Of a stretch of DNA of 64,000 nt, positions 926 through 18,560 are shown piece by piece. The first letter of the stretch is position 1. Each line of letters begins with the position of its first letter. The notes under the pieces were generated by a model. It was not told the origin of the DNA, did not search any database, and was given only the letters and a program-made list of their open reading frames with translations. The translations under genes and the position numbers were made by a program. The stretch is from Candidatus Hermodarchaeota archaeon (GTDB taxonomy: Archaea; Asgardarchaeota; Thorarchaeia; Thorarchaeales; Thorarchaeaceae), in NCBI GenBank assembly GCA_048885865.1, contig JBHLLF010000015.1:12271-76270 (forward strand). The letters run 5' to 3'.

Positions 926-1249
926 ATGGAACTCAGTCCATGTGGTCATGCCTGTGACATCTGTCCTAGCTACAAGGGAGAAAGTGGTCGTCAGTGTTCA
1001 GGATGTCTAGACTCAAAGGGTGAGCCATGGTGGGGCAATTGCAGGCTCTTCGAATGCGCTAGTACGAAAGGAGTACGTCATTGCGGTATGTGCGATGAGT
1101 TTCCCTGTGACCTTCAGATCGGACATTTCGATCCATCCAATCCTAAAGGTCAACGGAATGCAGTCTTGCGAACCGGTGTGCTTGCTTTTTGGGCGAAGCA
1201 TGGTGAAGACAAGACAGTCGAATTAGTCAAGAGAGTTCATGGAATCTGA
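926..1249 (+). CDS. DUF3795 Cys-rich protein
   Basis: SPCGxxCxxC...CxGC...CxxxxC...HCGxCxEFPC pattern. Confidence 0.85.
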   Translation: MELSPCGHACDICPSYKGESGRQCSGCLDSKGEPWWGNCRLFECASTKGVRHCGMCDEFPCDLQIGHFDPSNPKGQRNAVLRTGVLAFWAKHGEDKTVELVKRVHGI

Positions 1250-1276
1250 ATCTGTCCTTAGCTTCTTGCGATTGCA

Positions 1277-1302
1277 TATCTGTTTTGATTCAAGAACAGA
1301 TA
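1277..1302. promoter_or_regulatory. Imperfect palindrome upstream of MFS gene (operator or terminator)
   Basis: TATCTGTTTTGATTCAAGAACAGATA. Confidence 0.4.
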
Positions 1303-1340
1303 ATAATAGGCAAATACTAGCCTGACGAGGAGATTGTGAT

Positions 1341-2759
1341 ATGAGAAGCTCGGAGAAGCTCAGTAGGAAAAACCTCTGGGGTTATGCGTTTGGTGCAATT
1401 CCAACTGGACTCTTGGGATTCGTTTTTAGCTTCAAGTACATCGAGTTCTTCTTCGATGACCTTGCACTTCTCCCTTCATTTTTCATTCTTGGGCAGATTA
1501 TCTACATGACTATCAACTCACTGAACGATCCGCTATCTGGTCAGCTATCAGATAGAACTGACAGAGAACGATGGGGAAGCAGGCGTCTAATCTACATCAA
1601 ATATGGCGGTCCAATCTGGGCACTCACCTTCCTGCTTGTGTGGTTTCCGTGGAGTCTAACAAATCAGATAGTCATCTTCTTGCACTATGTTGTGACCATA
1701 TGTCTCTTTGACACAATGTACACCCTAGTCATTCTTCTTTGGCTTGCATTACTTCCCGAGATGACCATGGACATTGATGAGCGTAATAAAGCTCAGTTCT
1801 TCGCAACGATTTTGGGCACCGTAGTGACTCTACCCGTCTTTATAATAATTGCAAGTATTCCGCCTAATTCAGATCAGTTCAGGGCAATAATGTTCATTCT
1901 AGCCGCAATTTCTACGGTTTTCATTTTACTTACAGCCTCTATGTGTGAGGAGCGTCCTGAGTTCCAGAGTGACAAGGTCTTCACTCTAAAGGAATCAATC
2001 ATTGCCACATTTCGATCAAGGGCATTTCTTGTCTATGCCGGATTCTATCTCTGTCAGAATATGCTGGGAAGCTTGGGCTTGAGTTACTTCTTCGTATATC
2101 TGCTTCTCTTGGAGAGAATTACGCCGGGACTAGACGTCATTCTCCTATTCTTTGTCGTCTACTTCATAGTCGGATATTTGGGAAACATCATAGCAATCCG
2201 GCTCCAGTCGAGATGGGGAATGAGAAGAATCATGCTTAGGTTCGGGATTGTTAGAGTCATAGGTTCGTTGGTCCTTTTCCTCATCATACTTGTACCATCT
2301 CTCGAATGGACAATATGGTTCGGACTCATTGTGATTACTCTTGCATCTGGTTACGGCATTTTCCACATTCCAATGCAGTACTTAGCAATAGATGAGGATG
2401 AGGTGCTTCACGGCTCACGGAGAGAGGGTATGTTCATCGGAGTAATGGCACTGTTGACTCGTCCAGGGACTAGTCTTGGCCCCATAGTAGCCACGTTTGT
2501 GCTTACAGCTTTTGGCTACATTCAAAGCGGTTTGCCTGCGGCTCAGCCTGCATCCGCTCTACTTGGAATCAAGATTCTCTGGCTACTAGTACCAGCAATA
2601 GTGGCGGGATTAAGTCTAGTCTTCATCTACTTCTATCCGTTGCATGATGAGGCGTTAGCAGAGATGCAGGAAAAACTGCAGAGGCTTCATGAGGAAAAGA
2701 GAGCCGCTCTTCTTGAAGGGGATCAAAAAACCTCAGACTTTGCATCAACAGCTAATTAG
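1341..2759 (+). CDS. MFS transporter, GPH/MelB-like glycoside:cation symporter
   Basis: About 12 TM; NDPLSGQLSDRT..WGSRR and DEDEVLHGSRREGMF motifs; C-terminal YPL. Confidence 0.88.
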   Translation: MRSSEKLSRKNLWGYAFGAIPTGLLGFVFSFKYIEFFFDDLALLPSFFILGQIIYMTINSLNDPLSGQLSDRTDRERWGSRRLIYIKYGGPIWALTFLLVWFPWSLTNQIVIFLHYVVTICLFDTMYTLVILLWLALLPEMTMDIDERNKAQFFATILGTVVTLPVFIIIASIPPNSDQFRAIMFILAAISTVFILLTASMCEERPEFQSDKVFTLKESIIATFRSRAFLVYAGFYLCQNMLGSLGLSYFFVYLLLLERITPGLDVILLFFVVYFIVGYLGNIIAIRLQSRWGMRRIMLRFGIVRVIGSLVLFLIILVPSLEWTIWFGLIVITLASGYGIFHIPMQYLAIDEDEVLHGSRREGMFIGVMALLTRPGTSLGPIVATFVLTAFGYIQSGLPAAQPASALLGIKILWLLVPAIVAGLSLVFIYFYPLHDEALAEMQEKLQRLHEEKRAALLEGDQKTSDFASTAN

Positions 2760-3918
2760 GGATGTCTATAGGATAAGAGCTGTATTTCTCCCGAACCTCC
2801 ATAACTGCTTCCCATCTGTCAATAGTCACAGATGGAACAATGCTGTGCCCACTGCTGAATAGATATCCTCCTCCAGGAGCTATTTCTCGAATCAACTTCA
2901 TACTATATTCCTTAATCTCAGAGATGTTTCCAGTAGCCAACATGACAGGACTGATGTTCCCTACGAAAGTAAGCCTGTCACCATATTTCTCAGCGAGATT
3001 GAAAATATCATAATCAGGATTTGCAGTTGTGGGTTCAATTGGATGAATTGCGTCTACGCCACAATTCACGATATCATCAAATATCATTGACAAATCCCCA
3101 TCTGAATGTAGCAGAATCTTGCAATCCCTTTTATGCGCAGCATCACAGATTCGATTGAGCCAAGGAAAGACATATGTTTTGAAGTTCCGTGGACTCATGA
3201 ATAACCCATTTTTAAAGCCATAGTCATCCCAGATTAGGACAACCTCAGCACCGTTCTCTGCAAGGATACTGACCAGTTCAAGTGCTAGATTCCCTCTGTC
3301 ATCAAAGATCTTCTTTGCCTGTTTGGGCTTTGCCAAGATGCGTGAGAATACCTCAATTCCAAAAGGTTCCCAAGCAGGTTCGAACATTCCACCAATCGCA
3401 GGGACAGACAGGATTTCATTGTTCATCTGTTCTTGAACCTGTTTGCCAGCCCGGAAAGCAGCAAGTCGCCGTTTCTCATGTGGGCTTGGTTGTTTCCATT
3501 TCTCATAATCTTCGAAGCTCTTTAGATATCCTCCACGATAACCAAGAATCAGAGTTCCATCCTCATAATAGTCCACATTCATGATTCTACCAAACTCGTC
3601 TATGTAACCCCCCTCGATGCCTTTGCGATACGTATGTGTTACATAACTGAGACCAATATCAATCTTGAGACGTCGGAGAAGCTCATAGCCGTCGACCAAA
3701 CCTTGGGCAAGCCATTTTTGATTTGAGAATGCCCAGTTTGCAATGCGGTCCTTGCCTGGAAGCCGTTTTATGGATTCATATCCGTCCTTAATTCCAGCAC
3801 CAGGGTCAAGACCGTAGTGCTGCATGATTGTGTTGTTTGTGAAGGCACTCTCAAACGCTGGAACTCTGTCAGGTTCCTCATGGTTAAGTGCCATCAAAAC
3901 TCGTGTTGGTGCGTCCAA
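2752..3918 (-). CDS. Uroporphyrinogen decarboxylase-family protein (putative corrinoid methyltransferase)
   Basis: ALNHEEPDRVP, DDYG...MSP, LLHSDG, GNI, PGGGYLFSSGHSI; adjacent to corrinoid protein. Confidence 0.85.
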   Translation of the reverse strand: MDAPTRVLMALNHEEPDRVPAFESAFTNNTIMQHYGLDPGAGIKDGYESIKRLPGKDRIANWAFSNQKWLAQGLVDGYELLRRLKIDIGLSYVTHTYRKGIEGGYIDEFGRIMNVDYYEDGTLILGYRGGYLKSFEDYEKWKQPSPHEKRRLAAFRAGKQVQEQMNNEILSVPAIGGMFEPAWEPFGIEVFSRILAKPKQAKKIFDDRGNLALELVSILAENGAEVVLIWDDYGFKNGLFMSPRNFKTYVFPWLNRICDAAHKRDCKILLHSDGDLSMIFDDIVNCGVDAIHPIEPTTANPDYDIFNLAEKYGDRLTFVGNISPVMLATGNISEIKEYSMKLIREIAPGGGYLFSSGHSIVPSVTIDRWEAVMEVREKYSSYPIDIPN

Positions 3919-3923
3919 TCGTG

Positions 3924-4553
3924 CTATCCCTCCAACAGTGCTCTGATGCGCCGGACACCTTCTATTGCATCTGCCCCGAAGTCATCAGCTCCCATCTTCT
4001 TCGCAAGATCCATACTAAGAGGGGCACCACCAACGATAATCTTCACATTGTTTCTAAGACCAGCATCGCTTAGGGCGTTTCCAATTACACGAATCTCATT
4101 GACTGTCATTGTTAGTAGACAGCTCAGAGCCACAATACGAGCTCCACTCTCCTTAACAGCCTCTACAACTTTCTCAGCTGGACAGTCCATCCCAAGATCG
4201 ATGACATCATATCCCGCAGACATCAGCATAGTAATGAGGATGTTCTTCCCGATGTCGTGATTGTCGCCTTTGACAGTTGCAGCGATTACCTTCTCACGCT
4301 CAACCATCTCATCAGCTTTGAGGTGGGGTTCAAGAACAGCTACAGCCTCTTTCATCGTTTCGCCTGCTAACACAAGCTCGGCGAGAAAATACTCGTTCTT
4401 CTCATAGAGCGTACCAACTTCGTTCATACCCTCAGAGAGTGCTTGAAGAACATCCTGGGGGTTGGAACCAGCGTCAATATTCTTCCTAACAATCTCAGCG
4501 ATGTCATCTACCTCTAGTTGGACTACCGCATCTGTCACTTCTTTTAATGTCAT
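3924..4553 (-). CDS. Corrinoid (B12-binding) protein, MtaC/MttC type
   Basis: Cap domain GMNEVGxLY..EYFLAEL; DxHxxG motif GDNHDIGKNI; SCLLT; VGGAP. Confidence 0.93.
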   Translation of the reverse strand: MTLKEVTDAVVQLEVDDIAEIVRKNIDAGSNPQDVLQALSEGMNEVGTLYEKNEYFLAELVLAGETMKEAVAVLEPHLKADEMVEREKVIAATVKGDNHDIGKNILITMLMSAGYDVIDLGMDCPAEKVVEAVKESGARIVALSCLLTMTVNEIRVIGNALSDAGLRNNVKIIVGGAPLSMDLAKKMGADDFGADAIEGVRRIRALLEG

Positions 4554-4699
4554 AGTGATTCCAGCCTTCGGGGATTTTATCGAAAACTACCACCTACAGC
4601 TCCACATTAGATTGCATGGGTGTATTTGTTTGTTTCAGAATAGAATCGGAAAGAGATTAATCTCATATTGAGGGAATAGGATGAAGGTTGGAGTTAGGT

Positions 4700-7432
4700 A
4701 TGACAAAGAAACCCTATGGCTCAGGTTACTTCGGCGAGTGGATTATGGATGAGTTTGGTCTTCCAGCCTACCGATATACTTGTGACCAGACCACAGATCC
4801 AAAGGCTGTTTCACCGATGACAGAGGAATGGCGAGCCAACACAGACCATCTCCATCAGGTTGGAAATGATAGACTTGTGGCAGTTGTTTCCAACTATGGT
4901 CAGGTCCAAGTAAGGCAGGATGAGGGTAGTCCCAAGTTCCTAAATGATTATGACCCCTCAAGATTCCAATATGGTGGTGGTATAGGGTATTTGACTGATG
5001 GAGAAACATTCCTCAGTACATTCTACACTGGACAAGCAGACTCGTTTGACCGCAATTTTGGAATGGGCTATTTTCGAAAGACTGTGAAGGACAATTCACT
5101 TGTTGCGGACCAGATTATCTTTGCACCATTTGGCGATGAACCACTGGTGGTTTCACAGGTCACGATAAAGAACGAACGTGACAAAGCTGCTGATCTCAGA
5201 TGGATTGAATACTGGGGTTGTCAGCAATATCAGTTCTCATTCAAGTCGTTCATGATGTCGATAGCTCTGAAAAAGCCAACTTCAGACATTCGTAGGGAGT
5301 TCAGCCGGCGATTTGATCATAAGACGGAGGTCATAGAGAAGAATAGAGGATTGCTGAACTCAAAGCGTTTCAAAGGAAACACAATGAGTGACAAAGTCAC
5401 CTGGAAGGCCTTGAATAGGTACTTAGCCACAAAGGGAAAACATCTGACTGGTGGTGCTGTCAAGGCTCCAATTAAGGAAACAGTTCTTGAGGATGAAACT
5501 CCACCAGCAACATTCTTGGTTTCGTTGGATGCTCCTGCTGATGTCGTAGGTACGGATGTTGTGAGTTTCTTTGGTAAGGGTGGTGTTATTGCACCTGATG
5601 GGTTGCAGAGCACATTGTCCATGAGTACTGCCAAAAGGACTGAAACGGGCTTCCTCTTGGAGAGAAAACTGAGTCTTGCACCTGGAGAAGAACAGACTCT
5701 CTATTTCGTCTACGGCTATCTGCCTGAAGGATTTACACTCGACTCACTTGTTGCCAAGTTTGAGAAAGATCCATCTAATTTATTGGCAAAATCCTGTGAG
5801 CAGTGGAAGGCAAACAGGATTCAACTAGTAACTGATGATGAATGGGTGGATAGGGAACTAAGTTGGCACAATTACTACCTAAGAGGCAATCTTACTTTTG
5901 ACAGCTTCTTCAATGAACATATTCTCTCTCAGGGTCACATGTATCAGTACATAATTGGAATTCAAGCAGCCGCTCGAGACCCTCTCCAGCATGCGTTGCC
6001 TTTTGTCTTCTCTCAGCCTGAAATTGTGAAGAATATCATAAGATACACACTCAAGACAGTGACCCCAGAGGGAAACATCCCGTATGGTATTGTTGGACAT
6101 GGAATGTATATGCCATCTCCATGGCGCCCCAGTGATCAGCAACTTTGGCTCCTCTGGTTGACTAGTGAATATGTTCTAGGAAATAGGGATGTTGAGTTCC
6201 TTGACGAAAGCATCACCATGTATCCCATTTACGGGAAGAAAACCAGGCAAGCCAAGGTTCGTGACGTGCTCGCCCTATGTTTCAGGTACTTTATCGATAC
6301 AAATGCAACAGGAAAACATGGACTGTCAAGGCTCTCTTATGGCGACTGGAATGACATGGTTGTACATGGGTATGTCCCACAAGAGAAACGGGATGAAGTC
6401 ACTGAGGTGGGTGAAAGTATGTTGAATGCGAGCATGGCCACCTATGTGCTGAATCTATACTCACAGCTACTCACATACATAGGAGAACCTGATTTTGCAA
6501 ACGAGTCACTCGATTTTGCTAGGAAACAACAAGATGCAGTGAATCAGCAATGGCATGGCAAATGGTTTAAACGTGCATGGCTTGGCGACGCTCTTGGATG
6601 GGTTGGTACTGATGTCATGTGGCTTGAACCACAGCCGTGGTCAATCATAGGCAGTGCTGCGACTAAAGAACAAGCTGATATTCTTCTGAGGTCCTTGAGT
6701 GACCTTGCTAGGTCCTCCTCCAAACATGGAGCAGTGATTCTCTCCAAGCCCATAGAACTGATGGCTGGCAATCCAGGTATCGGCACAAATGCTGGCGTCT
6801 GGCCTTCAATCAATGGTACATTGATTTGGGCGCTTGCGCTTCTAGATGGGGGTTTAGCTTGGGATGAGTGGACGAGAAACTCTCTGGCCAAACATGCAGA
6901 GGAATACCCTGAGGTATGGTATGGAATCTGGAGCGGCCCAGATACCTATAATTCCGAGTTCGCAGATCGGCCGGGGCAAACAATTGTCGTAGAAGCAAGA
7001 GGAGGAGTAAGAGATGCCATTGAGGAGGGGGAGGAAGAAGAGGAGGGATTCATGGGAGTGGGATGGACAGACTTCCCTGTAATGAATATGCATCCGCATG
7101 CATGGCCCCTGTATACTATTGGGAAGCTCATGGGAATCGAGTTCAACAGCAAAGGAGTAGATTTGGCTCCAACATTGCCTAAGGACAAATACAAGTTCTC
7201 AACACCCCTCATAGAGATAGAGAAGTCAGATGAGGGGTACTCAGGAAAGTACTCGCCTAAATCACCAGGAACATGGAAAATGTCCTTAAAACTAGATGAG
7301 CGGGAATTGGAGATGATGAAAGTTCTTCTTGTGAACAAGAAAGAGGTCGATATTGCTCGAGAGGGGAACAGAATAGTGTGGGAAGGCCAAAGCACAGAGG
7401 ACGAACCACTGATATGGAATCTCAGGTTTTAG
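4700..7432 (+). CDS. GH94-like glycoside phosphorylase/hydrolase
   Basis: AARDPLQH, RPSDQQLWL, GKHGL..GDWND, GES, WFKRAW, LEPQPW motifs of the cellobiose-phosphorylase-like (alpha/alpha)6 domain. Confidence 0.8.
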   Translation: MTKKPYGSGYFGEWIMDEFGLPAYRYTCDQTTDPKAVSPMTEEWRANTDHLHQVGNDRLVAVVSNYGQVQVRQDEGSPKFLNDYDPSRFQYGGGIGYLTDGETFLSTFYTGQADSFDRNFGMGYFRKTVKDNSLVADQIIFAPFGDEPLVVSQVTIKNERDKAADLRWIEYWGCQQYQFSFKSFMMSIALKKPTSDIRREFSRRFDHKTEVIEKNRGLLNSKRFKGNTMSDKVTWKALNRYLATKGKHLTGGAVKAPIKETVLEDETPPATFLVSLDAPADVVGTDVVSFFGKGGVIAPDGLQSTLSMSTAKRTETGFLLERKLSLAPGEEQTLYFVYGYLPEGFTLDSLVAKFEKDPSNLLAKSCEQWKANRIQLVTDDEWVDRELSWHNYYLRGNLTFDSFFNEHILSQGHMYQYIIGIQAAARDPLQHALPFVFSQPEIVKNIIRYTLKTVTPEGNIPYGIVGHGMYMPSPWRPSDQQLWLLWLTSEYVLGNRDVEFLDESITMYPIYGKKTRQAKVRDVLALCFRYFIDTNATGKHGLSRLSYGDWNDMVVHGYVPQEKRDEVTEVGESMLNASMATYVLNLYSQLLTYIGEPDFANESLDFARKQQDAVNQQWHGKWFKRAWLGDALGWVGTDVMWLEPQPWSIIGSAATKEQADILLRSLSDLARSSSKHGAVILSKPIELMAGNPGIGTNAGVWPSINGTLIWALALLDGGLAWDEWTRNSLAKHAEEYPEVWYGIWSGPDTYNSEFADRPGQTIVVEARGGVRDAIEEGEEEEEGFMGVGWTDFPVMNMHPHAWPLYTIGKLMGIEFNSKGVDLAPTLPKDKYKFSTPLIEIEKSDEGYSGKYSPKSPGTWKMSLKLDERELEMMKVLLVNKKEVDIAREGNRIVWEGQSTEDEPLIWNLRF

Positions 7433-7450
7433 ATTAAGAGATGCCTAGCA

Positions 7451-8491
7451 ATGAATTCCCGCAATCTGACTCTTGAGGCCATCGAAGGTAAAACAGAGAG
7501 AGTTCCATTCAATCCATTCATCATGCATCTTGCTGCGTCGATTTATGGCATAGACTATAGCGGAGTATATTGTCAGGACGCACGAGTGCTTGCTGATGCC
7601 CAAATTAAATGCGCCAAAGCATTTGGAATTGACCACATGAACGTTTCAACTGATGCATATAGAGAGGCTAATGCATGGGGCGTAGAGATGGATTTCTCGA
7701 GTCACACTCCGGTGGCGAAGACACATCTTAGGATTGACGACTTTGACCAGGTTGAGGAACCAGACCTTAATGCTGCCAAGCGAATACAGGATAGGGTTGA
7801 GGCAGTCGAGCTGTTAAGAGAAGCTAGCAGCGACCAGTGTATCATTGGCTGGATAGAGGCTCCATTTGCGGAGATTTGCTGCTTGTTTGGATTGATGAAT
7901 GTGCTAAAGCTAGCTCGCAGAGATGATTGGAACGAGCTGGTCCAAGGACTCTTGGACCGAGTATTTTCAATTCAGCTAGAGTTTGCCATGATGCAGGTCG
8001 AGGCTGGAGCAGACATCATTGGAGCAGGTGACTCTGCCGTTTCTCAGATAGGCCCCAAGCGCTATGAGGAGGCCTGTCTTGAATCAACTCAGACTCTCTT
8101 CAAAGAAATCAACAAACATGCGCCTGTACTCTACCATGTCTGTGGGGACTGTTCAGTGGTTGACACTGAAGGCAGGGATATGTTGGAATTCGTCGCGAGT
8201 TCTGGAGCCTCAGTCTTGGACATAGACTACCAAGTGGACTTGGCCAGCGCAAAGGCGAAGATCGGTTCGAGAGTATGTCTTCGAGGCAATATCAATACCT
8301 CCCTCCTCGGAAGCGAAACGTACAATGAAATTCAGGTCACAAAGGAGATATCAGAAGCAATTCAAGCAGGTAAGCCAGGCGGCAGGTACATGTTCTCAGC
8401 AGGCTGCGAATGGCCTTGGGAACCCCTGGAATTGGCTACTCGGAATCTGCAGATTGCAAGAAACGTGGTCGAAGAGCTTGGAGGATATTGA
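7451..8491 (+). CDS. MtaA/CmuA-like methylcobamide:thiol methyltransferase (UroD family)
   Basis: RVPFNP, EAxAWG, EAGADIIGAGD; Zn ligands HVCG and SAGCE. Confidence 0.85.
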   Translation: MNSRNLTLEAIEGKTERVPFNPFIMHLAASIYGIDYSGVYCQDARVLADAQIKCAKAFGIDHMNVSTDAYREANAWGVEMDFSSHTPVAKTHLRIDDFDQVEEPDLNAAKRIQDRVEAVELLREASSDQCIIGWIEAPFAEICCLFGLMNVLKLARRDDWNELVQGLLDRVFSIQLEFAMMQVEAGADIIGAGDSAVSQIGPKRYEEACLESTQTLFKEINKHAPVLYHVCGDCSVVDTEGRDMLEFVASSGASVLDIDYQVDLASAKAKIGSRVCLRGNINTSLLGSETYNEIQVTKEISEAIQAGKPGGRYMFSAGCEWPWEPLELATRNLQIARNVVEELGGY

Positions 8492-8492
8492 T

Positions 8493-9665
8493 ATGAACTC
8501 CCGAGAACGAGTGATGACTGCTCTGAACCACAGAGAACCAGATATGGTGCCGCTAGATTTTGGGGGCAATCAGTCAAGTATTCACATTGTGGCTTACAAG
8601 CGACTACTCGAATATCTCGACATCGAGGATGATAACATTCGCTACAGTGATTTCCTCCAGCAGATTGCGAACCCTTGTGAAAAAATACTCGAGCTATTTG
8701 AAATAGATATTCGATGGCTCCGAGCACCTTCTTCATTTTTGCCTGATGGTTATGTTCCTGAAGTCGAGGGGAAGTTTCAAGGAGTCTTGGATCAGTTTGG
8801 CGTATTCTGGGGCAACAGTGCGGAGAAGGACCTTGAAGACATTCTCTATTACGATCCAGTCATCCATCCCTTGGCTGAAATGAAATCAGTACGGGAGATT
8901 AGGGAGTATGACTGGCCCGATGGAACTGACAGGACTCCTCTGAAGGGTTTGAGAAAACAGGCAAAGAAACTCAGAGAGAATACTGACTATGCCATTGCAA
9001 CGCCACCAGTTGGCTGCATTTATGAATACACGACATTCCTCTTTGGTTTTACAAAAGCTATGAAACATCTGCAGAAGAGTCCAGAGCTGATAATTGCCAC
9101 CATGGAGGAATTAGAGAAATATTGGACAGATTATGCTGCCGCACTACTTGATGAGGTGAAATTTGGAAACGAGCATTACGTCGATGTTGTTTCCAACAAT
9201 GGTGACCTTGCAGAACAGGCAGGCCCAATTATGAGCCCAAAACGCATCTATGAGCCTCTAATCAAACCAATAGAACAACGGTTCTCAGAGAAGTTACATG
9301 CCCTTGCTGACGTAAGAATCAACTACCATTCTTGCGGATCAGTTTCTCAATTCATTCCTCACTTCGCAGAAATTGGCTATGACGCACTGAATCCGGTTCA
9401 AGTCGGTGCTTTTGACATGGAGCCATGCAGCCTGAAGAAACGATTTGGGGATATGATAACATTCTGGGGTGGGCTGTGCGACACGCAGAAGACCCTTCCA
9501 TTTGGGACAGTTGATGAGATATGTCAAGAGGTCGAGCGTAACATAGCATGTTTGAAACCCAGCGGCGGGTATATTGCTTCAAATATTCACAATATAACTG
9601 CTGAAGTTCCACCAGAAAACGTAGTAGCGATGTTCGATGCCGCCAAAAGAAGTAGATACTATTAG
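8493..9665 (+). CDS. Uroporphyrinogen decarboxylase-family protein (putative methyltransferase)
   Basis: MNSRERVxxALNHREPDxVPxDxGG, YHSCG, LNPVQ, FWGG.DTQ.TLPFGT, HNI...VPPEN; start ATG 8493 just after upstream TGA. Confidence 0.87.
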   Translation: MNSRERVMTALNHREPDMVPLDFGGNQSSIHIVAYKRLLEYLDIEDDNIRYSDFLQQIANPCEKILELFEIDIRWLRAPSSFLPDGYVPEVEGKFQGVLDQFGVFWGNSAEKDLEDILYYDPVIHPLAEMKSVREIREYDWPDGTDRTPLKGLRKQAKKLRENTDYAIATPPVGCIYEYTTFLFGFTKAMKHLQKSPELIIATMEELEKYWTDYAAALLDEVKFGNEHYVDVVSNNGDLAEQAGPIMSPKRIYEPLIKPIEQRFSEKLHALADVRINYHSCGSVSQFIPHFAEIGYDALNPVQVGAFDMEPCSLKKRFGDMITFWGGLCDTQKTLPFGTVDEICQEVERNIACLKPSGGYIASNIHNITAEVPPENVVAMFDAAKRSRYY

Positions 9666-9762
9666 GCTAGGTTGGTTCCACGGAAAATAAAACGTAATCC
9701 AAAATAATGAAATGGTTCTTCATACAAAGATTATCATAGTATAACCCAAGGAGTGGAGATGA

Positions 9763-11178
9763 TTGTCTGCATTTGAGGACAGTGCGAAAAAGCTGTCCGA
9801 GTTTGGTCTTACACCCTATGAGGCTAAGGTCTACCTAGCCGCTGCTAAGCTTGGACCTACCTCTGCAAGTAAAATCTCAAAGGTAGCAAAGATTCGTCGC
9901 GAGGAAGTCTACCGAACATTGCCTAAACTGGAGAAAGCTGGACTCATTAATCGGGTTCTAGGCAGACCTGTCAAAATCAGGGCAATGCCAATCGAGAATG
10001 CCCTCAGCTTCCTAATTAGTCGGAAAGAAGAGCAAGCGAAACAGGAGATTTCAAACCTCTATTCAATGAGAGAGAGTATCTTGGATAGCCTGCAGGCCGA
10101 ACATGAAGAGGCGGATTTGGGTGATGAGCCCCACCATTTCACATTGATATCCGAAAAGGATGCTGTCGGTGCAAGGACTTCGGCATTAATTGGCAACGCT
10201 AGAGCTTCAATTGACGTAGTGGACTCAAGTGCAGATGTTATTCGATTCATACTCAATTATGCAGATGTTCTGGAAAAAACAATCAATAGAGATGTGAAAG
10301 TTAGGATATTAACAGTCTGTCCCGATAATGAGGAAACTATCCCAGAAGCTCTTCAGAAGCATGTCCCAAACAACTCATTCGATTTGAGGTACGTCGAAAC
10401 ACTCCCAAGTCGCTATATTATGGTCGACCGAGATCAGGCATTAATCACAACCACTCCCGACGGAACATTATCCGACATGAAATGCCTGTGGACGGATGAT
10501 CCCACTCTTGTTGGACTTATCGAGAGAGACTTCGGAGAGCAGTATGCCAAGTCCACATCCTGGAAAGACTTCAAGCTATCACCATCTGAAAAGATGACCA
10601 GGATTGTGAAACACCTAAGGCCAAGAGATCATGTGATTCTAATGTATGATTCACTAGAAGCCAAGCGAAACACGCTCTTCAATTACCTCAAATATGGACT
10701 CGACAATGGAGAGGCTGTGAAATATGTCTGTTCAGAAGAGTCTCCTGAAGAGATTCGACTGGCTATGCAGAAATTCGGAATCCCCGTGAGCGAGTATGAA
10801 AAAACGGGAGCGCTGGATATAATGAATTACACTGACATCTATATCAGAGAAGGAAAGTTCAGTGTTTTAGACGTCATGGATGCATGGGATAATTACTACA
10901 CAAATGCACTAGCTGAAGGATTCAAGGGTCTGAGAGTCACTGGAGAGATGTCATGCTTCATGGAACACTCTCTAGTGGGAGAATTGATTGAGTATGAGAA
11001 GGCGCTACATACAATATTGGACATACCCTTGACCGCAATTTGTGCCTATAACTCCGAAACGCTGGCCAACATTGAGAATCCATTGGACGTATATTCAGAG
11101 CTTGTCAAGGCTCATGGAAAAGTCCTTTTTGCTGACAAAGACAGCACTGTTGGGAAGGTAGAGATGCGTAAAGCCTGA
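9763..11178 (+). CDS. TrmB-family regulator with C-terminal MEDS sensor domain
   Basis: FGLTPYEAKVY...IRREEVYRTLxKLEKxGL HTH; PLD-like effector domain; MEDS motifs HVILMY, GLRVTGEM, EYE, AICAY. Confidence 0.85.
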   Translation: MSAFEDSAKKLSEFGLTPYEAKVYLAAAKLGPTSASKISKVAKIRREEVYRTLPKLEKAGLINRVLGRPVKIRAMPIENALSFLISRKEEQAKQEISNLYSMRESILDSLQAEHEEADLGDEPHHFTLISEKDAVGARTSALIGNARASIDVVDSSADVIRFILNYADVLEKTINRDVKVRILTVCPDNEETIPEALQKHVPNNSFDLRYVETLPSRYIMVDRDQALITTTPDGTLSDMKCLWTDDPTLVGLIERDFGEQYAKSTSWKDFKLSPSEKMTRIVKHLRPRDHVILMYDSLEAKRNTLFNYLKYGLDNGEAVKYVCSEESPEEIRLAMQKFGIPVSEYEKTGALDIMNYTDIYIREGKFSVLDVMDAWDNYYTNALAEGFKGLRVTGEMSCFMEHSLVGELIEYEKALHTILDIPLTAICAYNSETLANIENPLDVYSELVKAHGKVLFADKDSTVGKVEMRKA

Positions 11179-11533: not shown

Positions 11534-12214
11534 CTATCCAAACAGCAATCGTACAATTAGCTCAATCACAGCGATGTAGAAATTTCCGGATGGCGGTGCG
11601 ATGAAGGTTGTTGATAGATGAAAGTAGGGACGAAGCACCCATGCCAACTGTGTGCCTACAAAAGCAAGAACCCCACTGCCAGTAATCATTGCGGGCACCC
11701 ATTTCTTGTTCTCACCATGAATCTTGCTGAAGCCCCGCAGCAGATAGCTTACAGCTGTCACTCCAGCTATGCCGAAGAAGAACACATTGAGTAGCACAGT
11801 AAAGGCATAAGCTGCGAAAGTCCGCTCCGGTGTAGTGAGCATGAAGAATAGCGTTACTGGAAGAAATGCCATCATCATTGTGGCCATGACTGTGATGCTT
11901 ATCATGAACAGCACAGCCATCTGGAGAAGACTCATCTCGCCTCCTAGTATGCCATTTAGTACATAGTAGGTCGGCAAAGATACAAGCACTGCGACTAGCA
12001 GTAACATTGGAATCTTAATCGCATCAAATACAATCTGTAATCCGCCTGCGTATGTCCCCATGCTGGCGCCATAAAGAGCTCCAAAAAGAAGCGTTGCTAG
12101 AATCGAGGTCACGAAATAGCTCTTGAGGTTTTTTTCTTCCTGAATTTCGTTGTATAATCCCTCACGGTCTCGAATGAAACGGCTCAGAGTCTGAAAGAAC
12201 GATTCATAATCCAC
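11534..12214 (-). CDS. Multi-pass membrane protein (Yip1-like fold)
   Basis: 5-6 TM; AIKIP.LL..SLPT.Y and FVGTQLAWVLRPYF motifs; GTG 12214 with GGAGG upstream. Confidence 0.65.
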   Translation of the reverse strand: MDYESFFQTLSRFIRDREGLYNEIQEEKNLKSYFVTSILATLLFGALYGASMGTYAGGLQIVFDAIKIPMLLLVAVLVSLPTYYVLNGILGGEMSLLQMAVLFMISITVMATMMMAFLPVTLFFMLTTPERTFAAYAFTVLLNVFFFGIAGVTAVSYLLRGFSKIHGENKKWVPAMITGSGVLAFVGTQLAWVLRPYFHLSTTFIAPPSGNFYIAVIELIVRLLFG

Positions 12215-12313
12215 GCGCAATCCTCCATCATGCAGACAGAGGGTTACTTTTTGTGCGCTGCTACTGTCCAAGAATTGCACTATTCTCAATATGATGATGA
12301 TTTCGGGCTTATT

Positions 12314-13654
12314 TCAGGCACCCACTCTCTTCACATATTTGTCGATGGCAAATTTCCGTTCTAGCCCCTTGGAACTCATGTAGCGAACTTTGCCGTAGAT
12401 AGGTCTCTCTCCCCATGCTCTGTCGTGTTTTCCAAAGCACCATGCAACACCTGCGTATCCATTTGGATCCCGGCCATCTAGTTCATACTTGTCGTTCAGT
12501 AGAAGTGCAGTGCTATACGCCAATTCCGGAGATGAACTCCACTCTAGTATCTTCTTTCCCCAATACATGCGCATATAGCCATGCATCTTTCCGGTTTTCA
12601 TCATCTCGATTTGGGCGGCATTCCAATATGGATCATGAGTTTCAGCGGACTCAAATTCCGCAAGTGAATAGACGTGTTCGCGGGGGTCAGTGGAATGCTC
12701 TTCTAGTGTGGTCATAGCCCAATTGGGCAGACATCTAATTGAGTCATAGTCCTTGTTGTAATAGACAAAATTCATACTTAGCTCACGACGAACCACCAAC
12801 TCCTCAAGAAAGGGTTCGGCTCCAATACTTCCTGTTTCCAAGACCTGTAAAGCAATCTCGAGAGGTGATATTTGGCCAAAGTGGAGATACGGACTCATGA
12901 TAGAAAGATAGTTCTCGGAAGGATTATTGCGCAAGTCGCCAAATTGGTCTAGTTTCTCGGAGATGAATTTGCTTAGCCTTTTCTTCGCCTCTTGTGTGCC
13001 ACCTTGAATCCAGTCCACCCCTTTTACAGATCTGTCGATTTCAAACTCATCAAGTACTCTTCTTGGATTCTTCAACTGAATTGAGGGAATCTCTTCGTTT
13101 AGCGAAAAAGCAGGGTCAGATTTCACAAGAGGCTTTAGGAATCTTTCCAAGTGCCGACTTATTTTTGGCCGAAATGTCCCAGCAGAGTATTCCTCCTTAG
13201 GAGAAGCGGTTTCAACAGGAACAACCACATTGGATTCTACTTGAATGACAGGACATCTAACTGACTCCGCTACCTTGCTACGCCACTCTCTTTGAAGCCG
13301 TTGGTAATCACGATCAACAATCATCAGGGCACAGTCTTCAGCCAGACTAATCGCGTACACGCTTGGATCTTCTTGACGCACAATTAGCGGCAAATTCCTC
13401 TCATTAAGTTCTGCTTCTACTTGAATGAGACCTTCTAGTAAGAATTGATAGCTCCTTTCAGTGCCTCCCGGATATTTGCCTGTTAGCCCGAAACATACTA
13501 CAAGTGGTAATTCATACCTATTTGCCAGACCAATTGCATACTCTAGAGCATGATTGCTATCAGATCTCTGAGATGCCTGCATCCAATACAGTACATATTT
13601 TCCCTTTTGTATTGAATTGGAGTTCAGCTGAGTAATTCGTTCCTTGTCAATCAT
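12314..13654 (-). CDS. phrB: Deoxyribodipyrimidine photolyase, class II CPD
   Basis: VLYWMQASQR..NHAL, SPYLHFGQIS, EELVVRREL, THDPYWNAAQ, GKMHGYMRMYWGKKILEW, DGRDPNGY; start ATG 13654. Confidence 0.95.
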   Translation of the reverse strand: MIDKERITQLNSNSIQKGKYVLYWMQASQRSDSNHALEYAIGLANRYELPLVVCFGLTGKYPGGTERSYQFLLEGLIQVEAELNERNLPLIVRQEDPSVYAISLAEDCALMIVDRDYQRLQREWRSKVAESVRCPVIQVESNVVVPVETASPKEEYSAGTFRPKISRHLERFLKPLVKSDPAFSLNEEIPSIQLKNPRRVLDEFEIDRSVKGVDWIQGGTQEAKKRLSKFISEKLDQFGDLRNNPSENYLSIMSPYLHFGQISPLEIALQVLETGSIGAEPFLEELVVRRELSMNFVYYNKDYDSIRCLPNWAMTTLEEHSTDPREHVYSLAEFESAETHDPYWNAAQIEMMKTGKMHGYMRMYWGKKILEWSSSPELAYSTALLLNDKYELDGRDPNGYAGVAWCFGKHDRAWGERPIYGKVRYMSSKGLERKFAIDKYVKRVGA

Positions 13655-13688
13655 GTTGAATGGGTTCATGAGTAAAGACTTATTAGCA

Positions 13689-13708
13689 TTATTAACAATT
13701 GTTAATAA
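13689..13708. promoter_or_regulatory. Perfect 20-bp palindrome in divergent promoter
   Basis: TTATTAACAATTGTTAATAA equals its own reverse complement. Confidence 0.65.
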
Positions 13709-13751
13709 CGTTCTATTGTCAAACATTTGGAGCACTAGGATTGTGTGGGAT

Positions 13752-14213
13752 ATGCAATTTCCAAGCGTAAGTGGAAATGATCTTCTTAGAAACAAGGTTT
13801 CATTGCCTGATGACTTGAGTTCGGGACTAAATGTCCTGATAGTGGCTTTCCAACAGTGGCATCAGGGACTAGTGAACTCTTGGGTACCTCTTCTTGACCA
13901 CATGGTGGAAAAGTATCAAGATCTTGATTACTATGAATTGCCAACTATCAGGAAGATGAATTGGTTAAGTCGTAGCATAATAGACAACGGAATGCGAGCA
14001 GGAATTCCATCAAGAGACACACGAAGGAGAACCATAACGCTCTACATTGACAAGGACCCGTTTAGGAAAAAGCTAAACATCCCAGATGAGAGCGATATCC
14101 ATCTATTCCTGGTTTCAGATGGCGGCGAAGTCTTATGGACTAGGTCGGGTGCCATCTCAGAGGAAAAAGCAGATTCACTGACTTCTGCAATAGAGAAAGC
14201 TAGAGCGGATTAG
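13752..14213 (+). CDS. Thioredoxin-like-fold protein, ATP10-like, no CxxC
   Basis: FPSVSGxxL...LPDD...IVAFQQWHQ..VNSW, IDNGMRAGIP, FLV...GEVLW...G. Confidence 0.6.
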   Translation: MQFPSVSGNDLLRNKVSLPDDLSSGLNVLIVAFQQWHQGLVNSWVPLLDHMVEKYQDLDYYELPTIRKMNWLSRSIIDNGMRAGIPSRDTRRRTITLYIDKDPFRKKLNIPDESDIHLFLVSDGGEVLWTRSGAISEEKADSLTSAIEKARAD

Positions 14214-14229
14214 CGGACTCAGGACAAAA

Positions 14230-15705
14230 TCACGTGACAGGAGAAGATTCAGCTACCTGGACAAGCCTTTCAATGAACCTTCTAATCACATATTTCCTAA
14301 ATGGTAGTAGCCCATACCATGCAACCATTCCCGCCAGTCCATAGGGGCGGTAGTGGATTTCTGCATCGAGGGAACAACCTTTGGGAATTCTGTCCCTCAT
14401 TGTAAGTGTGAGTGTCATGAGAGCTGGCATCTTTAATCTTGACATGAGTGAGAGTCGGCTAGTAGGAGAGAATTCGACAATCTTCCAGCAGTCTACTGAG
14501 GAACCTGCTTTTAAACGAGAGAAAGGAGCTATGTTTTCTGCCATGCCGTTTCCTCGAAGAAGAACATCAATGTATCCGCGAAATGGCCAAATCCAACTTC
14601 CGTAGTTCCAGCCCTTTGTACCAATAATGGAATTTAGTGCATTCCAGACATTATCACTTGAAGCAAGTGATTCGAATCTCTGATTTATGGCAAAAGAGGT
14701 GCCTCCTGCCCACTGAGGATCCCCCTTCTGAACTTGCTCAGGAATTGAAACCAGTTTATAATGATCTTCTCTTTCGGAGGAAGTATGATGTCTTCTGTTG
14801 TCTATTGCTAGGCGAATAGCCTCACGGACAGTCAGTAGTTTCTGAGGAACTAATAACTGAACATCATCATTTTGAACGACTGCTTCATTCCGCAAACCTT
14901 CAATGAGTGGCCTTGTGAGTGGAGTTGGAAGAGGAGTCACTAAGGAAAGCCAATAGGAACTCAGACCCGGGGTTAGTATCGGTATGGGGACAATGAATCG
15001 TCGCACCAGACTTGCTTCTTCTGCATAGATACGCATCAGATCTTGATAGGAGAAGACATCGGGTCCACCAATATCCAAGACTCGATTGGCAGTCTCTTCG
15101 TTCGCAAGACAATCAATGAGATATCCGACAACATTGCTAACAGCAATTGGTTGACTCTTTGTGCGAACCCATCTAGGAGTCACCATAGCTGGCAATCTAT
15201 CAACAAGATACCGCATTATTTCGAATGATGCACTTCCTGCTCCAATTATCATAGCTGCACGAAGAGTAGTTGCTGGAACTGAACAGTCGTGCAAAATGCG
15301 ACTGACTTCCATTCGGGATGCAAGATGCTTGCTGAGTCCGCTCTCAACCTCACCCAGTCCACCCAGGTAGATTATTCGTTTTAATTCAGCCTGCTCCGCA
15401 GCTTTGACCATGTTTTCTGCTGCTGTTCTATCAAGGTTTACAAAATCCCCCTTACCGTACATAGAATGCACCAGATAGAATGCTGCAAAACATCCCTGTG
15501 TTGCACTGATCAATGACTCAACATCAAACACATCTGCTTTAACTGGAGTAAGATTCGGATGGGATGACCAAGATTTCATTTTGATTTTGGTGGAATCTCT
15601 GTATCCTGCATTGACCCGAAATCCCTTGCGTAGTAATGCACTCACTAGCCGGGTCCCAATGTAGCCAGTTGATCCGACTACTAGTACTCTTCTCAAATCA
15701 GTCAT
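14230..15705 (-). CDS. NAD(P)-binding SDR with DUF2867 (YbjT-like)
   Basis: GSTGYIG, AFYLVHSM, YLGGLG, SKHLASR, GSASFEI, QPIA; C-terminal START-like domain ending PYGLAG..WY. Confidence 0.85.
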   Translation of the reverse strand: MTDLRRVLVVGSTGYIGTRLVSALLRKGFRVNAGYRDSTKIKMKSWSSHPNLTPVKADVFDVESLISATQGCFAAFYLVHSMYGKGDFVNLDRTAAENMVKAAEQAELKRIIYLGGLGEVESGLSKHLASRMEVSRILHDCSVPATTLRAAMIIGAGSASFEIMRYLVDRLPAMVTPRWVRTKSQPIAVSNVVGYLIDCLANEETANRVLDIGGPDVFSYQDLMRIYAEEASLVRRFIVPIPILTPGLSSYWLSLVTPLPTPLTRPLIEGLRNEAVVQNDDVQLLVPQKLLTVREAIRLAIDNRRHHTSSEREDHYKLVSIPEQVQKGDPQWAGGTSFAINQRFESLASSDNVWNALNSIIGTKGWNYGSWIWPFRGYIDVLLRGNGMAENIAPFSRLKAGSSVDCWKIVEFSPTSRLSLMSRLKMPALMTLTLTMRDRIPKGCSLDAEIHYRPYGLAGMVAWYGLLPFRKYVIRRFIERLVQVAESSPVT

Positions 15706-17075: not shown

Positions 17076-17150
17076 GGGTAGACTCTGAAATAAACCGGAA
17101 AGGAGATGGAAACGGAGCATTACTCCGAGTCCTCTCCTGAATGTACCGTA

Positions 17151-18008
17151 TCAATCTCTCCAGTCGAATGAGTCAATGCCGCCCCATTTGCTTTTGCCAA
17201 TTGCCGCTCCAATAACAGCCATGAGGATTATGGATAGTATGACAACTGCAAAGTTCTGGTAGTCGTTGAATCCTGAGGCGAAGAAGTAGAACCAGAAAAT
17301 GAGTAGAACAAGCCATACAAAACCAATCCCCGGACCTAGCCATCTTGGAATGGGCTCCATTTCTGTTTCAAACACTGAAATGCCAACAGCCACGACATAC
17401 ACTACTAGTGTTACGACTAGGCCAACTGTGACATTGAAATAGAGTTCATAGCCTCCGGCATAGAACCAAAGCCAGATGATCAGGAATGCAAAGTACGCAT
17501 AGAGAGTGACTAGACCCAACACAGCGCGTCCTCTGAAAGCCATGAATGCTTCTCGAGGAACCTGTGTCATCCAAGGACCTCCTGTCAGTGCGATCAAGGC
17601 CGCAACTGATAGAATCATGATGGCGAAATTCTGGTACCCACTGTAATATGCGGCATAGAAAGGCCACCAGAGCACTATAAAGATCAGCCAACCAATTCCA
17701 ACTGTGATGGAGAGCCTTATCCTCCATGCTGAGGGAGCCCACATTATAGCGTTTACCCAACCAATGAATAGGAAAGAAGCTCCTATTACTGCGACATTCT
17801 CCCAGAATGTGTATCCTGTTCCAGCAAAGAAGAATAACCAAATCATTGCAAAGGCAACCCAAACAACAAAAGAAGCAGCCGATGCATTTCCTTTCCTCTT
17901 TGTTCCTGACCAGCCAGAACGTCCCCTCCGAACGTCTGGGGGAGGTGCGCTTTCCTCTTCTTCAGGAGCCTCAACTGGCTCCTCTTCATTATCATTCGAA
18001 TACTCCAA
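17151..18008 (-). CDS. Membrane protein with four internal hairpin repeats
   Basis: Repeat W..F...W..F[FY]A.G[YF]..[YW][QE]N.A[VI] occurs four times; acidic N-terminal tail. Confidence 0.75.
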   Translation of the reverse strand: MEYSNDNEEEPVEAPEEEESAPPPDVRRGRSGWSGTKRKGNASAASFVVWVAFAMIWLFFFAGTGYTFWENVAVIGASFLFIGWVNAIMWAPSAWRIRLSITVGIGWLIFIVLWWPFYAAYYSGYQNFAIMILSVAALIALTGGPWMTQVPREAFMAFRGRAVLGLVTLYAYFAFLIIWLWFYAGGYELYFNVTVGLVVTLVVYVVAVGISVFETEMEPIPRWLGPGIGFVWLVLLIFWFYFFASGFNDYQNFAVVILSIILMAVIGAAIGKSKWGGIDSFDWRD

Positions 18009-18419: not shown

Positions 18420-18560
18420 TCGATACTGTATCTATCCATTTGCTAGGCTTTGTCTATATAGGACCGAACCCATCAAATATATCCTAACAGATGTCGAGCA
18501 CTACATGGCAATCCTTAAGATACGACCATGGATGGCGCTGCAAAGGTGAGCTGAGAAAGG

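Follow-up and report, generated by a model that had tools for sequence, protein, structure and literature searches.

A gene cluster of an Asgard archaeon joins a glycoside importer and a GH94-like enzyme to a putative corrinoid-dependent methyl-transfer system

What does an archaeal gene cluster do in which a glycoside importer and a GH94-like enzyme stand among three UroD-fold proteins and a corrinoid protein? The cluster lies in the 64,000-nucleotide stretch of DNA analysed here (the window), which corresponds to positions 12271-76270 of contig C15 in a 3.58-Mb metagenome-assembled genome that is 87% complete. In a homologue search, the window proteins were closest to those of Thorarchaeota/Sifarchaeia-type Asgard archaea. 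Comparative genomics strongly supports the view that the cluster encodes a corrinoid methyl-transfer system tied to glycoside catabolism. We further propose, as the likeliest reading, that it may strip methyl groups, without oxygen, from an O-methyl ether carried by the sugar or sugar acid of an imported glycoside; for this narrower proposal, we see about equal grounds for and against.

An earlier note made from the sequence alone had listed in the cluster a DUF3795 protein, a glycoside-pentoside-hexuronide (GPH) symporter, three UroD proteins, a corrinoid protein, a GH94-like protein and a TrmB-MEDS regulator. All were confirmed by Pfam and NCBIfam models. They are given below with a candidate promoter element (positions in the window; aa, amino acids).

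926..1249, plus strand: DUF3795 Cys-rich protein, 107 aa, with ten Cys (PF12675, E 2.8e-10)
1341..2759, plus strand: GPH/MFS_2 glycoside-pentoside-hexuronide:cation symporter-like importer, 472 aa (PF13347, E 2.7e-48)
2752..3918, minus strand: UroD1, UroD-fold enzyme of the U390-A clade, 388 aa, putative substrate:corrinoid methyltransferase (MT1) (PF01208, E 1.6e-29)
3924..4553, minus strand: CorP, corrinoid (cobamide) binding protein of the MtbC/MtaC/MtgC type, 209 aa (PF02607, B12-binding_2, and PF02310, B12-binding)
4654..4661, plus strand: conserved A-ATTAAT box, candidate archaeal TATA box of the GH94-UroD2-UroD3 operon (invariant columns in six orthologous intergenic regions)
4688..7432, plus strand: GH94-like (alpha/alpha)6 glycoside phosphorylase or hydrolase, 914 aa (PF17167, E 4e-19; PF06165, E 1e-9)
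7451..8491, plus strand: UroD2, U346 clade, putative MtaA-like methylcobamide:thiol-type methyltransferase, 346 aa (PF01208, E 3.8e-47)
8493..9665, plus strand: UroD3, UroD-fold enzyme of the U390-B clade, 390 aa, putative second substrate:corrinoid methyltransferase (conserved start codon, AlphaFold2 fold)
9763..11178, plus strand: TrmB-HTH and MEDS-domain transcription regulator, 471 aa, candidate local regulator (PF01978, E 4e-17; PF14417, E 6e-31)

The GH94-like gene, UroD2 and UroD3 follow one another on the plus strand, 18 and 1 nt apart, and UroD3 is translationally coupled to UroD2 across the 1-nt gap. An open reading frame (ORF) at 8325-9665 overlaps UroD2; the true start of UroD3 is the conserved ATG at 8493, 1 nt past the UroD2 stop. 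The GH94-like protein possibly starts four codons further in, at 4700. CorP and UroD1 form a co-transcribed pair on the minus strand with a 5-nt gap, and a divergent intergenic region of 134 bp separates them from the GH94-UroD2-UroD3 operon. In the alignment of the six orthologous intergenic regions, the A-ATTAAT box precedes the GH94-like start by 27-40 nt. A search of the divergent promoter region for inverted repeats gave none.

Is this association of genes more than a coincidence of one contig? In a tree of the UroD-like neighbours of GH94-like genes, four well-supported clades were resolved: U346, which contains UroD2, U390-A, which contains UroD1 (clade support 100), U390-B, which contains UroD3, and the Loki-type U390-C. 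U390 is the name given here to the distinct UroD-fold subfamily of about 390 aa made up of clades A, B and C. We surveyed 80 loci of the GH94-like family, 41 of them archaeal, and clustered the neighbouring genes, a neighbour being any gene within 3 kb of the GH94-like gene. A U390 gene was found next to 33 of the 41 archaeal GH94-like genes, a U346 gene next to 15, a GPH transporter next to 14, CorP next to 13 and a sulfatase next to 12. In the loci examined, U346 was always accompanied by U390-B. In the whole host genome, there are only six URO-D matches, and three of them lie within 7 kb around the GH94-like gene. Chance adjacency is therefore of the order of 1%, and the clustering of UroD genes around the GH94-like gene goes beyond chance.

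The gene order is not fixed. At least four orders occur across Thor-, Atabey-, Hel- and Loki-type Asgard genomes (strand given as + or -):

Thor-type: [GPH], UroD1-, CorP-, GH94+, U346+, U390B+
Atabeyarchaeia: CorP-, GH94+, U346+, U390B+
Helarchaeota: U346-, U390A-, CorP-, GH94+, U390B+
One Loki group: GH94+, U390A+, U390B+, U346+
Common Loki type: GPH-, sulfatase+, GH94+, U390C-

A core of the GH94-like gene, UroD2 and UroD3, to which CorP and UroD1 may or may not be added, recurs in genomes of the same genus and in a closed Atabeyarchaeia chromosome; the GPH gene is missing from one same-genus locus (L012/L024). An independent bacterial case was found on an Anaerolineales contig, where GH5, GH31, U390, an 883-aa ORF, a GH94-like gene, a 297-aa ORF, UroD-SCP2, U390 and CorP follow one another on one strand. 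Thus, the linkage of GH94, UroD and corrinoid genes put forward in the earlier note, far from being absent in relatives, is kept in related and distant genomes alike. Two loci with bacterial labels were not counted as bacterial evidence, as their synteny is Asgard-like: L035 (labelled Thermodesulfobacteriota), whose U390 genes are 56-68% identical to those of the window, and L067 (Nanopelagicaceae), which has the Loki gene order. Both are probably mis-binned Asgard contigs.

How might three UroD-fold proteins share the work? The answer can be sought in the residues at the three zinc-ligand positions of MtaA. When UroD2 was aligned with M. mazei MtaA (4AY7), its YHVCGD and AGCEW motifs matched LHICGN and PGCG of MtaA, so that the His-x-Cys...Cys zinc triad is kept; this triad is conserved throughout the U346 clade. 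UroD2 scores far below the NCBIfam MtaA cut-offs (77.5 bits versus 400 for NF040654, 78.7 versus 235.4 for TIGR01463 and 89.1 versus 244 for NF004889). At the same three positions, UroD1 has His271, Asp273 and His358, and UroD3 has His279, Cys281 and His366. In the UroD superfamily, His-Cys-Cys marks S-methyltransferases, and one or both Cys are replaced by carboxylates or non-ligands in the O-demethylases (Kountz and Balskus, PMC10418091). On that rule, UroD2 would be a putative MT2-like thiol methyltransferase (MT2, second methyltransferase), UroD1 would be of the O-type and UroD3 would be intermediate. The patterns match the previous division of the three proteins into substrate-side and MtaA-type enzymes.

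The ligand patterns also bear on another reading. The substrate could be a methylthio-sugar or a methylated thiol derived from a sulfur-containing glycoside, with UroD2 and UroD3 acting as MtsA/MtpA-like S-demethylases or as methylthiol-forming enzymes. By the same rule (PMC10418091), the His-Cys-Cys site of UroD2 is typical of S-methyltransferases and UroD3 keeps one of the Cys. Moreover, the UroD3-type His-Cys...His pattern is the commonest in the family, being found in 110 of the top 150 U390 representatives as compared to 35 for the UroD1-type His-Asp...His, and sulfatases are frequent beside the Loki loci. However, the UroD1 site has no Cys, a sulfatase indicates sulfate esters rather than thioethers, and no thio-sugar pathway genes were recognised in the neighbourhoods. 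We consider that S-methyl chemistry is very unlikely to be the function of this cluster.

The fold of the U390 proteins was addressed by modelling. An AlphaFold2 model of UroD3 from an 86-sequence alignment reached a pLDDT of 96, superseding a poor model from 13 sequences (pLDDT 64). The nearest solved fold is that of MtaA (4AY7), followed by UroD and MetE; an insert rich in beta structure occupies about residues 50-125 of the model. With UroD3 alone as query, no PDB sequence match was obtained. With the U390-A profile, the top PDB sequence match was the corrinoid MT1 CdmB (9RUI), a weak match (E 1.7e-5) limited to the C-terminal 140 residues, and further matches were MtaA (9.5e-5) and UroD (8.5e-4). 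CdmB is a corrinoid MT1 near MtoB (PMC13222342).

Do the U390 enzymes work with a corrinoid protein? CorP itself carries the DxHxxG motif (D97-N-H99-D-I-G102) together with a B12-binding cap and a Rossmann domain, and matches TIGR02370 with E 1e-49, under the model cut-off. An exhaustive hidden Markov model (HMM) search with the U390 profile gave 4,265 representatives at E <=1e-30. In one match, 648 aa long, a U390-B-like domain is fused to a C-terminal domain with 41% identity to the window CorP and an intact DxHxxG motif. This fusion surfaced only there, as a homology search for longer forms of UroD3 and UroD1 had found none. When the 648-aa fusion was used in a genome search, U390~corrinoid single ORFs of 579-686 aa were found in 20 Chloroflexota species genomes. 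The Chloroflexota relatives of UroD3 that are fused to a corrinoid protein, or lie directly ahead of one, show 31-38% identity. At least 13 further loci have CorP as a gene of its own that adjoins U390, on the 3' side except in two loci, where it is on the 5' side. CorP is directly 5' of U390 in a Binatota locus. In three Chloroflexota loci, MtaA-like His-x-Cys...Cys proteins stand beside the U390/CorP pair, repeating the triad of the window.

These fusions and gene pairs, a Rosetta-stone pattern like that of CmuA, strongly indicate on genomic grounds that U390 enzymes dock on a corrinoid protein. Overall, it is very probable that the U390 enzymes depend on B12 and take part in the catabolism of carbohydrates. 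The corrinoid dependence that had been supposed for these proteins is thereby backed, at the level of genomic inference, by natural fusions to a corrinoid domain.

The surroundings of the fused genes were also inspected. In the Chloroflexota fusion loci (L204-L222, L254 and L269; for instance L216:6001-7953), an ABC transporter with an ATPase of 529 aa is frequently found upstream. A RACo or MtrH identity was ruled out for the ORFs upstream of the fused genes, the 529-aa one being the ABC ATPase.

The second half of the question concerns the glycoside. The GH94-like protein scores well above the Pfam cut-offs (69.1 bits versus 27 for the supersandwich domain PF17167; 38.6 versus 23 for PF06165). 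As a single sequence, it matches cellobiose phosphorylase (CBP) with E 1.7e-13; the family profile matches cellobionic acid phosphorylase (4ZLE) with E 3.6e-24 and CBP at about 1e-22. These matches place it as a distant member of the cellobiose/cellobionic-acid phosphorylase superfamily. An invariant G-D553-W-N-D motif aligns with the catalytic-Asp motifs RADWND of CBP and QGDWCD of 4ZLE. In the Cellvibrio gilvus CBP, we take the catalytic general-acid Asp to be Asp490 and the phosphate-binding His to be His666. The position of His666 is occupied by an invariant Ser707, within W-P-S-I-N-G, in an alignment that comes from HMMER only at this place. Given this Ser, the enzyme may act by phosphorolysis or by hydrolysis. 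The GH94-like domains and the catalytic Asp speak for the phosphorylase assignment in the earlier note, and the Ser in place of the phosphate-binding His speaks against it.

The GH94-like family is large and highly conserved, with more than 1600 homologues and at least 50% identity between its Asgard members and those of Acidobacteriota, Chloroflexota and others. The homologue, structure and literature searches made brought up no member that has been characterised, and a protein atlas returned only generic URO-D and GH94 clusters. No predicted secretion signal was noted for the window protein. As for the candidate importer, PF13347 covers positions 1-426 of 427, and the TIGR00792 score is 108.5 bits versus a cut-off of 231.

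Carbohydrate genes recur around the U390 genes. In Asgard archaea, the neighbours include GH94-like, GPH, sulfatase, GH1, DUF2961, HAD and xylose-isomerase-like genes, and away from GH94 the Loki U390 loci have sulfatase, GPH, DUF2961 and MFS genes. In bacteria, the neighbours are ROK and PfkB kinases, ABC sugar transporters, RhaT-like, fucose-isomerase-like and xylose-isomerase-like genes, GH1, GH5, GH31 and a sugar-acid dehydratase of the ManD/GalD type. A recurrent Chloroflexota operon has this dehydratase, a PfkB kinase and an ORF of about 210 aa directly upstream of U390-CorP, which hints at a pathway acting on a methylated sugar acid such as 4-O-methyl-glucuronate, or on its glycoside. 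On this context, an O-methyl carbohydrate as the methyl donor has, in our judgement, an even chance of being correct.

Some of these neighbourhoods deserve description. At L258:443-12675, and similarly at L226, L250 and L259, permease-like ORFs, the ManD/GalD dehydratase, PfkB, the ~210-aa ORF, U390, CorP, three ORFs of no assigned family and GH1 lie on one strand. A Fervidibacter locus (L193:2225-11735) has a U390-like gene in a glycan-type context, among a DUF6785/DUF6784 membrane protein, an 806-aa ORF of no assigned family and a 1169-aa DUF6259 protein. Downstream of U390-B in a Loki locus (L134:11686-15179) and in about 20 others, genes for a HEAT-repeat protein, a Ras-family small GTPase, a 320-aa ORF and an LRR/HEAT protein were found. 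These eukaryote-like signalling genes are probably unrelated to the methyl system.

The carbohydrate neighbours also bear on the direction of the methyl transfer. Corrinoid methyl transfers and GH94 phosphorylases are reversible. The cluster could thus serve biosynthesis, a sugar or glycoside (for example a compatible solute or a glycan) being methylated by a methyl-corrinoid charged from one-carbon (C1) metabolism, and UroD2 could load methyl groups from a methyl-thiol. However, the neighbours are catabolic (GPH and ABC importers, kinases, the dehydratase, GH1, GH5, GH31 and sulfatases) and neither a glycosyltransferase nor an export gene is conserved among them, which makes a biosynthetic role highly improbable.

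Where could the rest of a demethylation pathway be encoded? As stated before, the region of the cluster in the window has no RACo/RamA, MtrH or pterin-binding gene. Elsewhere in the genome, there are two RACo activases, one on contig C3, with a 2Fe-2S domain and adjoining an MtrH-like gene and a CorP gene, and one on contig C17. Including the one on C3, three MtrH genes lie on other contigs, two of them beside MTHFR on C64, and a pterin-binding (Pterin_bind) protein is encoded on C40. The genome has five small corrinoid proteins and includes an MttB-CorP pair on C2 and an MtmB-like-CorP pair on C16. This complement of RACo, MtrH, MTHFR, pterin-binding and MttB/MtmB-like-CorP genes identifies the host, as far as gene content goes, as a methylotroph that is not a methanogen. 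A search for CdhC (acetyl-CoA synthase) found none in the genome, which is 87% complete; an acetyl-CoA-pathway sink is therefore no more than a possibility.

Three of these contigs show further features. On C3 (L105:7886-11309), the MtrH-like gene, the RACo with its 2Fe-2S domain and the corrinoid protein stand in a row, preceded by genes for a PAS histidine kinase and a 4Fe-4S protein. The row probably serves all five corrinoid proteins of the genome as a general module for methyl-corrinoid:pterin transfer and reactivation. C2 (L102:2887-16800) carries a further U390-like gene, 33% identical to UroD3, flanked by a glycyl-radical enzyme (PFL-like, 787 aa) and an aminotransferase, and by a zinc alcohol dehydrogenase; the CorP and MttB-family methyltransferase genes lie about 6 kb beyond it. 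On C16 (L104:2306-9143 and 17079-19448), an ABC transporter, CorP and the MtmB-like gene (monomethylamine methyltransferase family) stand together; 8 kb downstream follows another GH94-like gene, a more distant one (789 aa, 25% identity).

We propose that the cluster is a two-module catabolic unit, one module for glycoside import and cleavage and one for corrinoid-dependent methyl transfer. In the first, the GPH symporter would import the glycoside and the GH94-like enzyme would split it in the cytoplasm. In the second, UroD1 and UroD3 would each move a methyl group from a carbohydrate-derived O-methyl ether, on a sugar or a sugar acid, to the Co(I) of CorP. UroD2 may pass the methyl group from CH3-Co(III) to a thiol acceptor; alternatively, the MtrH-type enzymes of the genome may pass it to a pterin. 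Co(II) would be re-reduced by a RACo activase encoded on the other contigs, and the demethylated sugar would enter ordinary sugar metabolism. Overall, the earlier interpretation of the cluster is supported in part: the linkage, the division of the UroD proteins, the corrinoid dependence and an activase and a pterin transferase encoded in the genome all speak for it, whereas the methylated sugar as donor, the phosphorylase activity and the entry of the methyl group into C1 metabolism are conjecture.

Several observations weigh against carbohydrate O-demethylation by this route. As leaving groups, the alkoxides of aliphatic sugar methyl ethers are inferior to phenolates. UroD2, being MtaA-like, calls for a thiol acceptor, and we know of none in Asgard archaea. 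In U390-C, the ligand pattern is His-Cys-Cys-Gly, with the third ligand absent. In the flanks of the Asgard GH94/U390 loci examined, no RACo, MtrH or pterin-type MT2 was found. About 30 bacterial GH94-like loci, mostly from Acidobacteriota, have no U390 gene at all, so that the GH94-like enzyme must be independent of the methyl system. For many U390 genes, among them every Loki U390-C gene beside a GH94-like gene, the surrounding 8-10 kb contain no corrinoid gene. Some Loki neighbours, namely the Amidohydro_2, enoyl-CoA hydratase (ECH), FAD_binding_3 and arylsulfatase-family genes, would be equally suited to aromatics. Finally, the characterised UroD-type O-demethylases all act on aryl methyl ethers (PMC8630106, PMC8359953, PMC13222342).

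The last two observations lead to the alternative of a methoxylated aromatic glycoside, derived from lignin or flavonoids and possibly sulfated. The GH94-like enzyme, with GH1 and a sulfatase in other lineages, would free the aglycone, and U390/CorP would demethylate the aryl methyl ether. This is in line with the substrate range of every characterised UroD-superfamily O-demethylase, with the arylsulfatase-family, Amidohydro_2, ECH and FAD_binding_3 genes and a GH1 in Loki loci, and with CdmB, a close MtoB relative, as the top PDB sequence match of U390-A. Furthermore, mto homologues have been reported in Loki- and Helarchaeota, and this DNA occurs in sediment and mangrove metagenomes, which are lignin-rich settings. 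On the other hand, the CdmB match is the weak, C-terminal one described above. The bacterial U390 operons contain sugar kinases, sugar isomerase-like genes, a sugar-acid dehydratase, GH5 and GH31, with no recognisable aromatic-ring pathway, and the MT2 of the cluster is MtaA-like, unlike the MtrH/pterin type of Mto and Mtv. We therefore regard an aromatic donor as unlikely. If it were the donor, the cluster would still represent a new coupling of deglycosylation to O-demethylation.

The scattered presence of corrinoid genes bears on a further alternative, in which the U390 enzyme beside the GH94-like gene would act on a sugar without B12, and CorP, UroD1 and UroD2 of the Thor-type loci would be a separate methylotrophy module that happens to lie nearby. 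Indeed, most Loki loci and several bacterial ones have U390 by sugar genes with no CorP within 8-10 kb. The Loki orthologues of UroD3, with no CorP within 8 kb, are set either among sulfatase, GPH, DUF2961, MFS and Amidohydro_2 genes or in a convergent U390-B/U390-A pair. Eleven of the U390-free bacterial loci have, some kilobases away, a MetE-like (Meth_synt_2) protein of the same clan as UroD; these acidobacterial loci have no CorP. Small corrinoid proteins do not separate U390-bearing from U390-free bacterial genomes, several Acidobacteria without U390 still carrying B12-binding_2 proteins of about 220-240 aa. Against this stand the fusions in 20 species and the direct U390/CorP pairs in at least 13 more loci, the 13 archaeal loci, spread over several Asgard classes, in which CorP separates UroD1 from the GH94-like gene, the UroD2-UroD3 translational coupling, and the 4-11 small corrinoid proteins found in each of the five Asgard genomes tested. 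A U390 activity free of B12 appears to us distinctly unlikely.

The MetE-like loci have their own character. At L071:12766-20571 and in 10 other Terriglobia loci, the GH94-like gene occurs without UroD and with a 344-aa MetE-like (Meth_synt_2) gene. The neighbours of the Terriglobia GH94-like genes are SDR, SIS, ROK, FAD_oxidored, phosphotriesterase-family, RhaT-like and metallo-beta-lactamase genes.

What would demethylation of a carbohydrate by the U390 enzymes mean? Sugar methyl ethers block ordinary sugar catabolism. They occur as 4-O-methyl-glucuronate in hardwood xylan, as 6-O-methyl-galactose in agar and porphyran, and as methylated sugars in pectin and microbial glycans. How they are handled anaerobically, in sediments, guts and digesters, is apparently undescribed, and corrinoid-type, oxygen-free demethylation of carbohydrates is a reaction that has not yet been demonstrated. 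A B12 route, if true, would close this gap. In sediments, methyl-group (C1) metabolism would then draw straight on the breakdown of glycans. Methylated glycans would count among the sources of methyl groups for anaerobic C1 metabolism and, by an indirect path, for the formation of methane or acetate, and Asgard archaea would gain a concrete part in degrading plant and algal polymers.

The U390 family comprises about 4,000 clusters at 50% identity, from Asgard archaea, Chloroflexota, Verrucomicrobiota and others. Its members may be B12-dependent demethylases that need no oxygen and act on methylated sugars or sugar acids, together a large family so far overlooked; this is a tentative idea that we rate slightly below an even chance. 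Candidate substrates are 4-O-methyl-glucuronate (xylan), 6-O-methyl-galactose (red-algal galactans) and methylated deoxy-sugars. Literature searches brought up no report that ties corrinoid or UroD proteins to methylated sugars or to polysaccharide loci, and none on a GH94-UroD-corrinoid cluster. This agrees with the earlier note, which knew of no described sugar-linked O-demethylation pathway of this form in archaea. A Sifarchaeota preprint mentions MtaA/CmuA-family genes and methylotrophy, in general terms only.

The two outermost genes of the cluster contribute little. The presence of the DUF3795 and TrmB-MEDS genes is as previously stated, but as an argument they are weak, since both are conserved only within the genus: DUF3795 adjoins the cluster only in same-genus loci (family f29, 4 loci), and the regulator is kept downstream of UroD3 only in such loci. 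Membership of DUF3795 in the system is doubtful. Between the DUF3795 and GPH genes, at 1277-1302, lies an inverted repeat, TATCTGTT/AACAGATA, whose 8-nt arms match perfectly across a 10-nt spacer; it could be an operator or a terminator. After the cluster, at 11534-15705, a 251-aa ORF without Pfam match, a DNA photolyase (493 aa) and an NmrA/DUF2867 SDR (491 aa) form a trio that is syntenic in same-genus genomes; light-repair genes are surprising for a presumed sediment anaerobe. The window contains no tRNA or Rfam element.

How does the cluster compare with known systems? Like MtoABCD (Methermicoccus shengliensis, Archaeoglobus fulgidus), MtvABC/Odm/Vdm (acetogens) and CdmBCA (chloromethane), it has a UroD-superfamily substrate:corrinoid methyltransferase, which is putative here. 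It has two MT1 paralogues, as with MtoB1 and MtoB2. It also shares with Mto, Mtv, Odm and Vdm an adjoining DxHxxG corrinoid protein of about 210 aa, a RACo-type activase in the genome, and a transporter and a regulator in the cluster. In contrast to these systems, the MT1 candidates of the window form a subfamily of their own, weakly similar to CdmB; the second methyltransferase is MtaA-like (His-Cys-Cys) and not of the MtrH/pterin-binding type; and the cluster has no activase. It is moreover embedded with a GH94-like enzyme and a glycoside importer, which argues for a carbohydrate rather than a free aromatic substrate.

With the MtaA/MtbA/MtsA methylcobamide:coenzyme M methyltransferases (4AY7), UroD2 shares the fold and the His-x-Cys...Cys triad, and a corrinoid gene lies alongside. 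It differs in its NCBIfam scores, 77-89 bits versus cut-offs of 235-400, and in belonging to a non-methanogen. To our knowledge, no coenzyme M use has been described for the host. The mlp clusters (type 1, with MtaA-like Mlp) differ from the window system in that they are not linked to glycoside enzymes, and the paper describing them mentions neither glycosides, sugars nor Asgard archaea (PMC10418091). In CmuA, MT1 and corrinoid protein are one polypeptide (PMC13222342). The Chloroflexota relatives of UroD3 share this fusion architecture of a UroD fold and a corrinoid domain with CmuA of the aerobic chloromethane degraders, whereas the window proteins are separate polypeptides and differ from it in subfamily and in their sugar-operon context.

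The GH94-like enzyme has in common with the GH94 phosphorylases acting on cellobiose, chitobiose, cellobionic acid or cellodextrin the supersandwich and (alpha/alpha)6 domains and the catalytic Asp in DWND. It belongs to a distant family in which Ser replaces the His666 of CBP and which is highly conserved in its own right. Finally, the sole sugar O-demethylase that we found described, as far as the accessible text of the reports goes, is the aerobic P450 of marine Bacteroidetes that acts on 6-O-methyl-D-galactose (PMC6292453, PMC10033563). On the proposed reading, both systems would perform the same task, the removal of a methyl ether within a glycan-utilisation locus, and U390 enzymes, if they act so, would be the anaerobic counterpart of the P450. 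The P450 is oxygen-dependent and releases formaldehyde, whereas the window system, built from unrelated proteins, would be oxygen-independent and would transfer the methyl group intact.

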